Shown one piece after another: positions 11,063 through 59,549 of a DNA stretch of 64,000 nucleotides (position 1 is its first letter; every line of letters begins with the position of its first letter). Origin of the DNA: Octopus sinensis (taxonomy: Eukaryota); NCBI RefSeq assembly GCF_006345805.1, contig NC_043004.1:77438001-77502000 (forward strand), written 5' to 3'. The notes beneath the pieces were generated by a model, which was given only the letters and a program-made list of their open reading frames with translations, was not told where the DNA came from and made no database searches. The position numbers and the translations under genes were made by a program.

Positions 11063-11192
11063 AGAGTTTACGAAAAAAACAAAAGACGAAGACAGGTGGT
11101 GTACAAAACAAACAGATGTATTAGTATAACGCTCAGGAATTGAAAAAGTCTTTTACGTTTCGAGCCTACGCTCTTCTACAGAAAGGGACAGA
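11060..11192 (-). mobile_element. Solo PLE pseudo-LTR (family of 40600-40782) containing a hammerhead fold
   Basis: Reverse complement matches 40657-40782 and 41646-41781; embedded in (TA)n. Confidence 0.8.
11150..11185 (-). ncRNA. Minimal type-I hammerhead-like ribozyme, core CUGUAGA
   Basis: CTTT-CTGTAGA-A-GAGC(GTAG)GCTC-GAAA-CG-T-A-AAAG: stem I CTTT/AAAG, stem II GAGC/GCTC, palindromic stem III ACGT. Confidence 0.7.
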
Positions 11193-29687: not shown

Positions 29688-30222
29688 CAAAAGACAAATT
29701 GGAAAAAATCTAAATATAAAAATTCCAAGGTCTTTCAACTATAAAAGTGCATCAACCTGACAGAGTCTGGTTTCTAACAAACTCGTGACAATTCATAAAA
29801 TTTTCTGATTTATGGCATCAGGTACACTTGCACTCACGTTACTACGTGCAGCTGGAGTGTTTGATGACTTTTTTTTTTTTTTGGTAGTCCTTATTTTAAT
29901 TTATGAAGCCACTCTCATTTACAAAAATCCTATGTCTCCAGTTGTTCTCAGATTTAGTAACCATAGTTTGTCTATGTACGCCTTACTGATGAGATCTAAT
30001 AAAACCGAAATATGTATGGAGTTGTCATTTAATGGTCATATTTAATTAATTTTTACTGAAATTTTGGTATTATCTCCACTTTTTTATGTTTTATTTTGTT
30101 TTGTTTTTCCAGAATTAATCATTCAGAAAATTATTGTTCTCCTTAATAAGAGTGACTATCAATTAATGAAAAAATTTTAATACATCAAATATGCTACTTG
30201 CTACTTTATTATTTCAGGAATA

Positions 30223-39496: not shown

Positions 39497-40782
39497 TCGA
39501 ATGGCTCGCCACTTCATCCTTCATGGATATCCCCTCACCACTATCTACCCTGCTCTTGCCAGAGCACATTCCGTGGACCGTGCCTCTCCTCTTTCTCCCC
39601 GCACCCGCCCCGTCGTTGCCCGTCTCCCTTCACCTAACACCCGTCCACCCTGCTCCTACAACACACCATTCTCCGAGTCTTTCGGCGACTCCAGTCTGAC
39701 TCCTTCACCTCGCACACCTTCCCCAACCTACTCCTTCCCTCATTCAAACGAGCCCACGCCCTGCATGACCTCCTGGTTCACAATTTCTTCCCTAACCCCA
39801 ACTCCCAGCTTGGCTGGTTCCTGCCCACGCTGCCGTACTTGCCCCTACCTCTCCAACACCACCATCCTCACAGGCACCCATCATCGTCCCTATCACCGAC
39901 TCCTTTACCTGCACTTCCTGTAACATCATTTACTGCATATCCTGCTCTTTCTGTCATTCCCTGTACATCGATCAAACGGGACGCCGCTTGGCTAGCCAGT
40001 GCGCAGAGCACCTCCGAGGCATCAGATTCGGTAATGACACCTCGGTCTCGCGCCACTTCTGCTCTACCGCTCATTCACTACGACATTTGTCTGTGTTCCG
40101 ACTGTCTTCACACAGTGGTTATCCGGACTCCCGCCTTCACCGTGAACATGAATTAATCTTCTCTCTTCGCTCCTTTGCGCCACTTGGGCCCAACTCCCCT
40201 CCTCTTTTCATCTGACTCTTCCCTCCTCTCTTCATCTGATTCCTCTCCTCTCTTCACTCCTACTTACCTCCTGTCTTCATTGATGCCACCCCCACCCCAC
40301 ACCCCACACCACTCCACACACACTAGCACTGACCACTTCCCAACACCCACATCACACATAATCATCCACATGCCCATATACCAACATCCACACACCCACA
40401 CACAATCTTCAATAGCATCACCACACATTACAGCCACACGTTACAGACGCACACACATCCCACACGTCAAACCCCTATTCACACACACTTACACATTCAC
40501 ACACACCATTCTCACATACATACACACGCACGCGCACCTTCATTTGGGATCATCAGCACTTTATTATCTCCCTTTCTTCCAACCTCTTCTTTCAAACCTG
40601 ACCGTTAAATCTACAGGGTTTTTTTTAATTCTCTCTCTGTTCATTTTCTCTTATTCCTTTCTGTTGAAGAGCGTAGGCTCGAACCGTAAAAGATTTTTTT
40701 CATTTTCCCGGGCGTCAAACTAATACACCTGCTTGTTGTTCTTACACCTGTCTTCGTCTTTTATTTTTCTATAAATTCCAAC
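39497..40782 (+). mobile_element. Penelope-like element (Neptune-like), 5'-truncated: RT C-terminus, Cys-rich linker, GIY-YIG endonuclease, 3' UTR/pLTR
   Basis: HFILHGYP..., CPRCRTCPY, DSFTCTSCNIIYCISCSFCHSLYIDQTGRRLASQCAEHLRGI...VSRHF...RLHREHELIFSLRSFAPLGPN; stop at 40215; hammerhead fold at 40657. Confidence 0.9.
40657..40692 (+). ncRNA. Minimal hammerhead-like ribozyme, core CUGUUGA, A15.1 mutated
   Basis: CTTT-CTGTTGA-A-GAGC(GTAG)GCTC-GAAC-CG-T-A-AAAG. Confidence 0.6.
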
Positions 40783-40796
40783 TATATATATATATA

Positions 40797-41510
40797 CTAG
40801 CAGTATAGCCCAGCGTTGCTCGGGTTTGTTTTTTAGTTGCGCTTAAAACGGCAGACTTTGATGTCGCGTTAACAAAGTTTTGACATAGTTTCAATCTGTG
40901 AATAAAAGTATAGTGTGGCGATGAATGTGCTGCAAATGTGTAATGCCGACTTCAGTTGTTGGTATTGTTGGTTAATATTCCTTCTATTAACATTATGGAG
41001 AAAAAAAATTACCCGTAGATTTAGAGCAAAATGAAGCTCAAGTTCCGAACTGCACAGAAAATCTATTAAGAAGTGAACACTGCAACAGTATTCATTGAGA
41101 AAAAGTACAGGAAAATCCGTCGTTCGCTCAAAACCAATGACATCACAAAAGAATTCTTTTCGACCCTTTAGAATTGGAATTTTTGAAAAGTAAAAATTTT
41201 GCATTATGTAGCTTGTTATTCTCTTTAAGTGAACATTTTTCTGGTTGAAATACACCGAAAAATGACACAGCAGTCAAAAGATCGTTAAAAATAGGGATTT
41301 TCATAGAAAAAAAAGCACCTTTTTATGTAAGTAATTTTTGGTGTTAACATGGTCCGATTTGAATTTTTTTCTTCTACGGAATGAAGAGCAAGTCTTCTTC
41401 TATCATACTCTCAATTTTGGTCAACTTGCGCCGCAGAGACTCGGAGGAGATAGTGTTAGTTGAAGGCTACCAAACCTGCCACACACACAGACAACTTCAG
41501 CTTTATAAAC
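40797..41510 (-). mobile_element. Non-autonomous Helitron inserted in (TA)n between two pLTRs
   Basis: Plus-strand actagcagtatagcccagcgttgctcggg equals a 3' hairpin plus CTAG on the minus strand; the other end is cacacagacaacttcagctttata. Confidence 0.65.
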
Positions 41511-41526
41511 ATATATATATGTATAT

Positions 41527-41574
<48 letters not shown>

Positions 41575-41575
<1 letters not shown>

Positions 41576-41781
41576 TGTTGATTCGTTAGCTACTGCACGC
41601 ATTTTTTTTTCTCTCCTTCTTTCTGTGTTTTTCTCTCTCTGTGTATCTTTCTGTTGAAGAGCGTAGGCTCGAAACGTTAAAGACTTGTTTTATTTATATT
41701 TCCTGAGCGCCATACTAATACAATTGTTCGTTTGTTTTCCACCTGCCTTCGTCTTTTGTTTATTTTCATAAAGCTTCCCGT
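41575..41781 (+). mobile_element. Second PLE pseudo-LTR copy
   Basis: Similar to 40600-40782, in the same orientation. Confidence 0.8.
41646..41683 (+). ncRNA. Minimal type-I hammerhead-like ribozyme, core CUGUUGA
   Basis: TCTTT-CTGTTGA-A-GAGC(GTAG)GCTC-GAAA-CG-T-T-AAAGA; 5-bp stem I, 4-bp stem II, palindromic stem III. Confidence 0.72.
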
Positions 41782-42199: not shown

Positions 42200-42802
42200 T
42201 CACTCACAAGAACCCATTGGCGGCAAGTCAATTGAGGTCGAAATTGACGAGTCCTTAACTGTCCGCTGGAAATACGGGAGGGTCGAATCCTGAGCCAAGT
42301 TTGGTTGTTTGGTGGAATGGAGCGTCGTTTTGTCGTGCCTCTTATTGATAAGAAGCATGACAAAATGGCACTGGTTCCTTTGATCCAGAAATATATCAAA
42401 CCTGGCTCAGTTATTTACAGTGATTCTTGGGCTGCTTACAATGATCTAAGCAGTGTGGGTTACCACCATTACGTAGTAAACCATTCTGAAAATGTTATAG
42501 ATCAAACACACCCATACATACACGCACAAAACACTGAACGTTTGTAGAGGGACATAAAAGAGTGGGCGTGAAGGCCAGGTATACGGTCAAAATACTTGCA
42601 TCAGTACTTGGCTAGATAATTCTCCAGGCATTTGGCTGCTATTTTTAGCATATTGACATTTACAGTTTCAGTCCGTTTGGAGTCTTTCATATAAAATTTG
42701 AGCTTAAAAAAAGATTTTTCCATATTCTTAATTTATGTATTTTTCTACGTACATTGAAAAAAATTTTAATTTGGAAACGTTCAGCGGTAAATATGCAACT
42801 TT

Positions 42803-56598: not shown

Positions 56599-56652
<54 letters not shown>

Positions 56653-56889
56653 TATATATGCTCTTACTCTCTTTTTTACTGTTTTATTTGTTTCAGTCAT
56701 TTAACAGTGACCATGCTGGAGCACTGCCTTTAGTCGAGCAAATCAACCCAGGACTTAATCATTTGGATGCCTAGTACTTATTCTATCAGTCTCTTTTGCC
56801 GAACTGCTAAGTTATGGGTACGTAAACACACCACCATCGGTTGGACAAACAGACACACAAACATACATACATATACATATATATATATA

Positions 56890-58075
56890 TCATCATCATC
56901 GTTTAACGTCCGCTTTCCATGCTAGCATGGGTTGGACGGTTCAACTGGGGTCTGGCAAGCCCGAAGGCTGCACCAGGCCAGTCAGATATGGCAGTGTTTC
57001 TACAGCTGGATGCCCTTCCTAACGCCAACCACTCCGAGAGTGTAGTGGGTAATTTTATGTGCCACCGACACAGGTGCCAGACGAGGCTGGCAGACGGCCA
57101 CGCTCGGATGGTGTTTTTTATGTGCCACCGACACAGGTGCCAGACGAGGCTGGCTGACGGCCACGCTCGGATGGTGTTTTCTTATGTGTCACCGACACAG
57201 GTGCCAGACGAGGCTGGCGGACAGCCACGCTCGGATGGTGTTTGTTACATGCCCTCAGCACGGAGGCCAGTCGTTGCAGTACTGGCTACGGTCACGTTCG
57301 GATGGTTTTCTTATGTGCCACCGGCACTGGTACCACAAGGATACAAATTCCATTGATGTTCATCTATTTTGATTTGGTTCAATTTGATTTGATTCGATAC
57401 GATTCTCACTTGCCTCAACAGGTCTTCACAAGTGTCACAAGAAGGAAGGTATGCACAGGTGGACTGACTACGTCCCAGGTAGGGGCCACGGATTATGGCT
57501 TCACTAGTCTTGCCGGGTCTTCTCACGCACAGCATACTTCCATAGGTCTCGGTCTCTAGTCATTTCCATGGTGAGACCTAACGTCCGAAGGTCGTGCTTC
57601 ACCACCTCGTCCCAGGTTTTCCTGGGTCTACCTCTTCCACGGGTTCCCTCAACTGCTAGGGATTGGCACTTTCTCACACACCTATCTTCATCCATTCTCG
57701 CCACATGACCATACCAGCGCAATCGTCTCTCTTGCACACAACAACTGATGCTTCTTAGGTACAACATTTCTCTCAAGGTACTAACGCTCTGTCGAGTAAG
57801 TACACTGACATTACACATCCATCGGAGCATACTGGCTTCGTTCCTCACGAGCTTACGCATGTCCTCAGCAGTCACGGCCCATGTTTCACTGCCATGTAGC
57901 ATAGCTGTTCGTACACATGCATCATACAGTCTGCCTTTTACTCTGAGCGAGAGGCCTTTAGTCACCAGCAGAGGTAAGAGCTCCCTAAACTTTGCCCAGG
58001 CTATTCTTATTCTAGCAGTTACACTTTCAGCGCACCCACCCCCACTACTGACTTGGTCACCTAGATAGCGGAAGC
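56890..58075 (-). mobile_element. Young 5'-truncated RTE-clade LINE (copy 1)
   Basis: Uninterrupted ORF FRYLGDQ...MLHGSETW...RRLRWYGHVARM...GRGRPRKTW...DRDLWK, stop at 57504; UTR with 62-64 bp tandem repeats (57058-57330); (GAT)n tail. Confidence 0.95.
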
Positions 58076-58085
58076 ATATATATAT

Positions 58086-58131
<46 letters not shown>

Positions 58132-58366
58132 TATATATGCTCTTACTCTCTTTTTTACTGTTTTATTTGTTTCAGTCATTTAACAGTGACCATGCTGGAG
58201 CACTGCCTTTAGTCGAGCAAATCAACCCAGGACTTAATCATTTGGATGCCTAGTACTTATTCTATCAGTCTCTTTTGCCGAACTGCTAAGTTATGGGTAC
58301 GTAAACACACCACCATCGGTTGGACAAACAGACACACAAACATACATACATATACATATATATATA

Positions 58367-59549
58367 TCATCATCATCGTTTAACGTCCGCTTTCCATGCT
58401 AGCATGGGTTGGACGGTTCAACTGGGGTCTGGCAAGCCCGAAGGCTGCACCAGGCCAGTCAGATATGGCAGTGTTTCTACAGCTGGATGCCCTTCCTAAT
58501 GCCAACCACTCCGAGAGTGTAGTGGGTGATTTTATGTGCCACCGACACAGGTGCCAGACGAGGCTGGCAGACGGCCACGCTCGGATGGTGTTTTTTATGT
58601 GCCACCGACACAGGTGCCAGACGAGGCTGGCTGACGGCCACGCTCGGATGGTGTTTTCTTATGTGTCACCGACACAGGTGCCAGACGAGGCTGGCGGACG
58701 GCCACGCTCGGATGGTGTTTGTTACATGCCCTCAGCACGGAGGCCAGTCGTTGCAGTACTGGCTACGGTCACGTTTGGATAGTTTTCTTATGTGCCACCG
58801 GCACTGGTACCACAAGGATACAAATTCCATTGATGTTCATCTATTTTGATTTGGTTCAATTGATTTGATTCGATACGATTCTCACTTGCCTCAACAGGTC
58901 TTCACAAGTGTCACAAGAAGGAAGGTATGCACAGGTGGACTGACTACGTCCCAGGTAGGGGCCACGGATTATGGCTTCACTAGTCTTGCCGGGTCTTCTC
59001 ACGCACAGCATACTTCCATAGGTCTCGGTCTCTAGTCATTTCCATGGTGAGACCTAACGTCCGAAGGTCGTGCTTCACCACCTCGTCCCAGGTTTTCCTG
59101 GGTCTACCTCTTCCACGGGTTCCCTCAACTGCTAGGGATTGGCACTTTCTCACACACCTATCTTCATCCATTCTCGCCACATGACCATACCAGCGCAATC
59201 GTCTCTCTTGCACACAACAACTGATGCTTCTTAGGTACAACATTTCTCTCAAGGTACTAACGCTCTGTCGAGTAAGTACACTGACATTACACATCCATCG
59301 GAGCATACTGGCTTCGTTCCTCACGAGCTTACGCATGTCCTCAGCAGTCACGGCCCATGTTTCACTGCCATGTAGCATAGCTGTTCGTACACATGCATCA
59401 TACAGTCTGCCTTTTACTCTAAGCGAGAGGCCTTTAGTCACCAGCAGAGGTAAGAGCTCCCTAAACTTTGCCCAGGCTATTCTTATTCTAGCAGTTACAC
59501 TTTCAGCGCACCCACCCCCACTACTGACTTGGTCACCTAGATAGCGGAA

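Follow-up and report, generated by a model that had tools for sequence, protein, structure and literature searches.

A lineage-wide change at core position 6 of the hammerhead motif in Penelope-like elements of Octopus sinensis

Minimal hammerhead ribozymes (min-HHRs) are known from Penelope-like elements (PLEs) of metazoans, where cleavage is slow and dimeric, and slow even with A at core position 6 (A6) (Cervera and De la Pena 2014, PMC4209133). In the sections of that report considered here U3-A8 is the sole core change described, and the rows inspected from its 56-motif alignment have A6, as required by the descriptor that was used. A natural A6C hammerhead in phage Bcep176 displays slow yet detectable cleavage with kobs <0.1 per min (Perreault et al. 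2011, PMC3088659, in its section on this ribozyme). The pairwise mutagenesis data of Roberts et al. (PMC9901934), as far as they concern the CUGA box, show low activity for mutants other than the C3-G8 swap, and the activity is not rescued by a second change. The hammerhead of the Poseidon element PAc is protein-assisted in vitro, and insertion of PAc, likewise in vitro, is independent of cleavage according to the central results of Frangieh et al. (2024, PMC11167929). PLE terminal repeats also contain promoters, as summarised in a review section. A full-text literature search, which covered published hammerhead alignments in part, found no natural A6U hammerhead; CUGUNGA gave 0 hits and A6U one unrelated twister paper.

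The motif described here was found in a stretch of 64,000 nucleotides (the window) from the 2.72-Gb assembly of Octopus sinensis, a genome with abundant simple repeats. Three hammerhead copies had been recognised in the window by the initial annotation, with C3 at 40661 (plus strand), 41651 (plus) and 11181 (minus), and its description of their sequences is accurate: U is found at core position 6 in all three (U6), N7 varies (U/U/A in copies A, B and C) as does H17 (A/U/A), stem II GAGC/GCUC is identical throughout, and the copy at 40657 has lost A15.1, with C at 40684 instead. Each motif has a minimal type I layout with stem I CUUU/AAAG, the box C-U-G-U-N-G-A followed by an extra A, stem II with a GUAG loop, GAAA, a CG palindrome, U16.1 and H17. 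No further copies were found when copy B was compared with the 64-kb window by BLAST, and an Rfam search of the window gave no hammerhead match. The features are the following:

39498-40782, plus strand: copy A, a 5'-truncated, probably Neptune-type PLE of old subfamily S1, with ORF end, 3' UTR, hammerhead motif and tail
39796-40215, plus strand: frameshifted remnant of Zn-finger linker and GIY-YIG endonuclease (ORF list; tblastn 74% against the equivalent region of locus L003)
40657-40692, plus strand: hammerhead motif A (U6 at 40664, A15.1 lost with C at 40684, H17 = A at 40688)
40783-40797, plus strand: (TA)n tract targeted by copy A, bordering it on the 3' side
40800-41500, no strand assigned: dispersed 700-bp repeat between the copies, unrelated to the PLE (matches elsewhere in the genome, none to the PLE unit)
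41574-41781, plus strand: copy B, 208 nt long and 5'-truncated, inserted within (TA)n; it belongs to S7, the youngest subfamily, and matches the L142 unit at its 3' end with 98% identity
41646-41683, plus strand: hammerhead motif B (from sequence, fold and pair counts)
11150-11185, minus strand: hammerhead motif C (U6 at 11178, N7 = A, H17 = A)

Copy A is 75% identical to the full-length unit at locus L142 across 39498-40202 and 76% identical across the motif and tail, and its assignment to S1 comes from its tree position. Motif B has stem I at 41646-41650/41679-41683, C3 at 41651, U6 at 41654, the extra nucleotide A9a, the GUAG loop on stem II and the palindrome ACGU; the predicted cut is after U17 (41678). 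Motif C is in a short 5'-truncated copy between (TA)n tracts, placed in subfamily S4 by tree position. A separate CUGAUGA...GAAA match at 29986-30010 has poor stems, is unrelated to any of the loci that were fetched, and is probably due to chance or to another, decayed family.

The host of the motif is the pseudo-LTR (pLTR) of a PLE with a 4,560-nt unit encoding a reverse transcriptase (RT) and a GIY-YIG endonuclease. L142 is a complete partial tandem of this unit with the motif at both unit ends, the position expected for a pLTR. The RT there is above the Pfam cutoff (PF00078), and the GIY-YIG domain (PF01541), C-terminal to the RT, gives E values of 0.001-0.006, below cutoff, at three loci. 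A CX4CxxC Zn-finger linker precedes the endonuclease and fits the CX2-5CxxC pattern given for both Neptune and Nematis PLEs in the descriptive part of PMC8557442. The element is thus probably a Neptune-type, endonuclease-containing (EN+) PLE, judged from its RT and GIY-YIG domains and from a linker that it would share with Nematis. Partial tandems and microsatellite targeting, both Neptune-type traits, are present. The majority of copies are short and 5'-truncated; they occupy (TA)n tracts, and their 3' ends lie at a TA run, 103 nt beyond the predicted site of cleavage, and this run leads on into the 5' UTR where copies are in tandem. At L040/L041 and L219/L220 inverted pairs of family copies lie 0.3-1.2 kb apart, like described PLE insertions.

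The motif resembles the min-HHRs, as these are presented in PMC4209133, in its type I order, stem I of 4-5 bp, extra nucleotide after A9, G10.1-C11.1, 4-bp stem II ending in GCUC, two-base CG palindrome that substitutes for stem III, location within the pLTR and thousands of solo truncated copies; the nearest row in that alignment is the Neptune element of Acropora digitifera. The GAAA box, U16.1 and an H17 other than G are likewise present, with copy A alone lacking A15.1. Unlike the A6 of the min-HHR rows, the base at position 6 is U, and the CUGANGA core box of min-HHRs is replaced by CUGUNGA as the prevailing form in this lineage. Compared with Bcep176, as treated in PMC3088659, position 6 is again naturally altered in an otherwise intact core, but the base is U and not C, and a family of more than 14,000 copies conserved through subfamilies contrasts with a single phage sequence. 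The likeness to PAc (PMC11167929, main results) includes an internal start of reverse transcription downstream of the hammerhead and AT-rich targets, with a PAc template that is mainly uncleaved RNA; in contrast, PAc belongs to the Poseidon clade, U6 is not mentioned in those results, and the start is here at a TA run lying 103 nt beyond the cut site.

The initial annotation also noted a GIY-YIG ORF upstream of copy A and two directly oriented copies in tandem, both of which are true in part. The homology exists (75% identity over 727 nt to the RT-thumb, linker and endonuclease end of the full unit), but what is left is a broken, 5'-truncated remnant without a Pfam match of its own. The two copies are indeed on the plus strand at the positions given, but this is not the arrangement of one element: copies A and B are 79% identical (143/180 aligned bases), the tree places them in an old and in the youngest subfamily respectively, and (TA)n tracts and the 700-bp repeat separate them. 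Among 57 listed matches to this repeat about 20 are near-full-length copies elsewhere, with 85-92% identity. It is non-coding, lies in a TA tract and has ends that, we presume, recall Helitron/Helentron-type elements. The further idea that the 1-kb spacing allows a dimer through the ACGU palindrome is not supported, since the copies are independent (TA)n insertions and since copy A lacks A15.1, so that at most a half-competent dimer is possible from A and B; such a dimer would require one read-through transcript, with only the catalytic strand of B usable. A tandem dimer at this locus is rejected, given the different subfamilies, the low identity and the unrelated repeat, and the two copies lie near each other by coincidence, through the target they chose, without functional meaning. 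Genuine tandems are found at other loci, namely L142 and the mini arrays described below. Also in the window are an ISXO2-like (IS1595 family) transposase fragment (42248-42547; Pfam PF12762, E 1.4e-10) and a direct duplication of 1,479 nt containing a tandem repeat of 63-64 nt (56618-58750).

On the main point, that U6 is a family-level trait and not random decay, the initial annotation is borne out by the genome-wide count that it had proposed: there are 14,893 exact U6 copies and 172 A6 copies, that is, A6 is far from being the state of most copies. The reversed sequence has 0 exact matches in the genome, so the motif is not due to chance. All non-U letters at position 6 total 562 copies, and C makes up about two thirds in the first 100 of the listing, as counted by hand. 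For control, the change U4A at a different core U is found in 112 copies; the A6 count is comparable in magnitude, although 1.5-fold greater (P = 4e-4, with a single control site). Leaving stem II unconstrained gives 23,157 U6 matches (control 120). When copies were retrieved without fixing the core box, CUGUNGA was found in 89 of 100, U6 in 99 and A6 in none (hand count), and in a sample picked by the tail (86 copies, 65 with a full ungapped core) U6 was found in 63/65. U6 is the majority state in all eight subfamilies. The motif stretch was matched in sequencing runs of five organisms, none of them listed as an RNA run, and in contigs from the four inspected for position 6 (A-D) no non-U letter reaches at least 10%, which does not by itself prove identity; metagenome contigs gave 0 matches to the motif. 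The possibility that A6 copies with the GUAG loop form a sub-lineage of their own is rejected, with 8 A6 copies in single placements in four subfamilies and A6 near the order of the control, and a C6 intermediate is unsupported, the oldest C17 group being mostly U6. Searches with a descriptor fixed on CUGANGA would overlook more than 20,000 motifs in this genome alone.

A FastTree tree was constructed from 154 aligned copies, of which 111 were grouped by eye into eight U6 subfamilies, while 27 copies in A6 sister groups and 16 that are short, ragged or in-between were excluded; many copies were found via the core pattern, 30 were selected as non-U6 and the grouping is manual. The tree shows a ladder of U6 subfamilies with within-group identity rising, not quite monotonically, from 0.68 to 0.94. 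Parsimony on majority states gives four changes at N7 and three at H17, whereas 32 of the other 33 scored columns are unchanged, and the remaining one has a single weak stem I change in the five-member oldest group. The 3' flank compared in the same way has 25 changes in 69 columns. One change in the 33 columns stands against about 12 expected (P ~8e-5). The tail-picked sample has the same two variable columns, and the whole 36-nt stretch is otherwise invariant in sequence inside the U6 lineage. Positions kept include C3, G8, G12, A15.1-U16.1, the extra A9a between 9 and 10.1 (63/65 tail-picked copies), the G10.1-C11.1 pair (15/15 rows) and the palindromic 15.2-16.2 (C in 63/65 and G in 62/65 tail-picked copies). 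Helices I and II are paired in 93% of 120 cells, with one pair altered on both sides in one event between families.

H17 is A or U in all 100 copies listed (hand count) and C in the oldest subfamily. G17 was seen in 11 of 30 fetched copies, spread across five subfamilies without a lineage of its own, in agreement with the NUH rule, by which H17 is not G. Freedom at N7 and H17 is that of a working hammerhead. Because only these two positions vary repeatedly and 32 of 33 others are fixed, the comparison of copies demonstrates that a hammerhead-like fold stayed under selection after A6 changed to U. For U6 by itself zero changes are expected 70% of the time without selection, so this base need not be selected. 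N7 and H17 also change faster than any column of the 3' flank, for which rate tuning or a mutational hotspot are possible reasons.

The A6 sister families, with 8,098 relaxed matches, have the same stem II. Most of the first 100 of these matches listed have A6, UCC or UUU loops and a GUUU/AAAC stem I (L075-L104), and one stem I pair is swapped in a compensatory manner from C-G to G-C/G-U in 6/15 rows. As the sister families retain A6, U6 is derived. An element CCYGAGCG, at 41706-41713 in the window and at equivalent sites in L075-L104, lies about 20-30 nt past the cut site and is kept in both U6 and A6 families; its complementarity to the 3' strand of stem II makes an alternative fold possible. 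With the element, its copy numbers, U6 in every subfamily and the continued conservation of the fold all observed directly, the motif is genuine, a core variant that runs through the whole lineage and belongs to a known ribozyme class, with a hammerhead-like fold under selection.

What this fold does can be read in more than one way. The reading we prefer, with confidence evenly poised for and against it, is that of a minimal type I hammerhead with a fixed U6 which would be a slow ribozyme, cutting only as a dimer or when refolded by protein. A6 would have changed to U once, in the founder of the lineage, and the change may have been tolerated if the element needs little or late cleavage and most templates read through the site. 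Pairing of U4-G5-U6 with A15.1-C-G would hold a lone copy as an inactive rod, a lock that might persist until two copies pair through their ACGU palindromes; the few RNAs that are cut could then give unit-length or circular templates from which partial tandems are regenerated. This reading is supported by the dominance of U6, by a freedom confined to N7 and H17, by the slow cleavage of the A6C hammerhead, by the protein-assisted PLE hammerhead and by templates that behave as circles. It is weakened by insertions that read through the site, by the low activity of the published CUGA mutants and by the lack of spread of the arrays. The slowness of minimal PLE hammerheads even with A6 and the cleavage-independent insertion of a related PLE in vitro also count against it, and the rod fold accounts for most of the same conserved positions.

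The ends of insertions bear on cleavage directly. No 5' end was found at the predicted cut site in 30 young copies, and none of 50 scored tandem copies starts there, 48 running through the motif. Where an insertion joins (TA)n, more junctions fall at the cut site than at any other position (11/50, hand count), but this site provides TA microhomology, which confounds the count, and a TA-rich site further downstream has similar use (5 versus 6 in the same span). Junctions of the A6 sister family peak at +3 instead (9/26). One of 16 arrays, L198, begins exactly at the cut site, with TA microhomology. Judged from these positions, the insertion ends appear to be without a clear cleavage footprint at the cut site.

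Circle-like templates are suggested by mini tandem arrays. Unit junctions were found at 68 loci (of 170 matches), where 52 are ordinary or internally deleted copies and 16 are mini arrays:

Mini arrays, retrozyme-like: L146, L148, L150, L161, L165/L166, L172/L173, L185, L187, L192-L195, L197, L198, L200, L212

The units are 258-610 nt long, repeated 2-5 or more times, and consist of the end of the PLE 3' UTR, the U6 motif, the tail and the start of the 5' UTR, with one type I hammerhead each. Their junction ends cluster at about +265 and about -190 relative to the unit junction. Inside 7 of 9 multi-junction arrays as printed the junctions are identical to the base, and no array extends beyond its own junction into native 3' UTR; the template therefore behaved as a circle. 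A linear internal deletion as the origin is unlikely, with 0/7 one-junction arrays passing their own junction (joint P ~1e-7), and splicing is rejected as the origin of the junctions, which have no GT donors. Like the non-LTR retrozymes, as outlined in PMC7229834 and bioRxiv 10.64898/2026.07.22.740005, the arrays are short, non-coding, head-to-tail units that originate in PLE terminal repeats and contain a single type I hammerhead apiece; unlike the retrozymes outlined there, they have the minimal U6 motif, 2-5 units and each junction at one locus. No junction recurs at a second locus among 17 compared, as the spread of a retrozyme family would entail, and the dimeric U6 arrays are thus without visible spread. 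Similar joints are present in contigs of other organisms. The arrays may be explained by cleavage and ligation, or else by RT jumps along a short linear RNA, by homologous strand transfer or by expansion at the DNA level, and since the latter routes are free of cleavage the arrays do not prove activity.

The lack of a clear footprint also speaks for a motif that no longer cleaves, and this is the strongest of the other explanations, a serious one that we nevertheless rate as somewhat improbable. The U6 rod would then be kept as a signal for binding or positioning the RT-endonuclease about 100 nt upstream of the start of reverse transcription. U6 makes U4-G5-U6 complementary to A15.1-C-G, and the predicted monomer is a rod of stem I, this pairing, tandem G-A pairs and stem II, in which the catalytic box and the palindrome are buried. 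At N7 = U the G5-C15.2 and U6-A15.1 pairs are predicted with 0.94-0.97, and the U6-A15.1 pair is absent from the predicted folds of natural A6 copies. Inside the lineage the sequence of stem II and its loop does not vary and shows no covariation, A6 was not refixed despite four changes at the adjacent N7, and the published changes of A6 are strongly impaired (PMC3088659 and PMC9901934, in the parts cited above). The pairing falls to 0.04-0.76 at other N7, however, and it is weak in subfamilies with N7 = G or C (0.04-0.41). Folding z-scores against shuffles are unremarkable (-1.14 to +0.18), so that the rod counts as a lead. C3 and U16.1 are mismatched in the rod yet unchanged, and G17, which would extend it, has not been fixed, a weak argument with so few events. 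As a lead from modelling, the rod would fit both main readings, either as a lock on a slow ribozyme or as a new non-catalytic structure.

Conservation at the DNA level, as an internal promoter or endonuclease site with an inherited resemblance to the hammerhead, would agree with the promoters in PLE terminal repeats reported in the review section mentioned above and with the invariant 36-nt stretch, but freedom is limited to exactly N7 and H17, which are separated by 23 nt, and sister families show covariation at a stem I pair; we rate this explanation as improbable. A non-functional relic that became fixed in the founder and has since been copied in the absence of selection would account for the persistence of U6 alone and is largely refuted by the single change in 33 columns where about 12 were expected, so that we hardly credit it.

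The slow-ribozyme reading that we prefer can be carried further, to a proposal that is speculative and that we consider unlikely. A6U might be a switch, giving up faster catalysis in return for a lock formed by self-pairing, with the RNA staying whole for reverse transcription until it is released by the element's protein or by a second copy. The main A6 sister family has a different predicted self-pairing, for which reason such a lock may have been favoured more than once, and the mini arrays might be nascent retrozymes from circles of this kind.

Whether PLEs need hammerhead cutting is a wider question, as the motifs are near universal in these elements, slow in vitro and dispensable for insertion in one reconstituted system. 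A very successful lineage that carries a change of a supposedly essential core base through eight subfamilies, while keeping the other hammerhead signatures, is a natural test of cutting, and the A6 point variants and A6 sister families of the same genome are natural controls. If the U6 motif is active, the core consensus of the hammerhead would be extended; if it is inactive, one hammerhead fold of a PLE would be seen to have a non-catalytic role.
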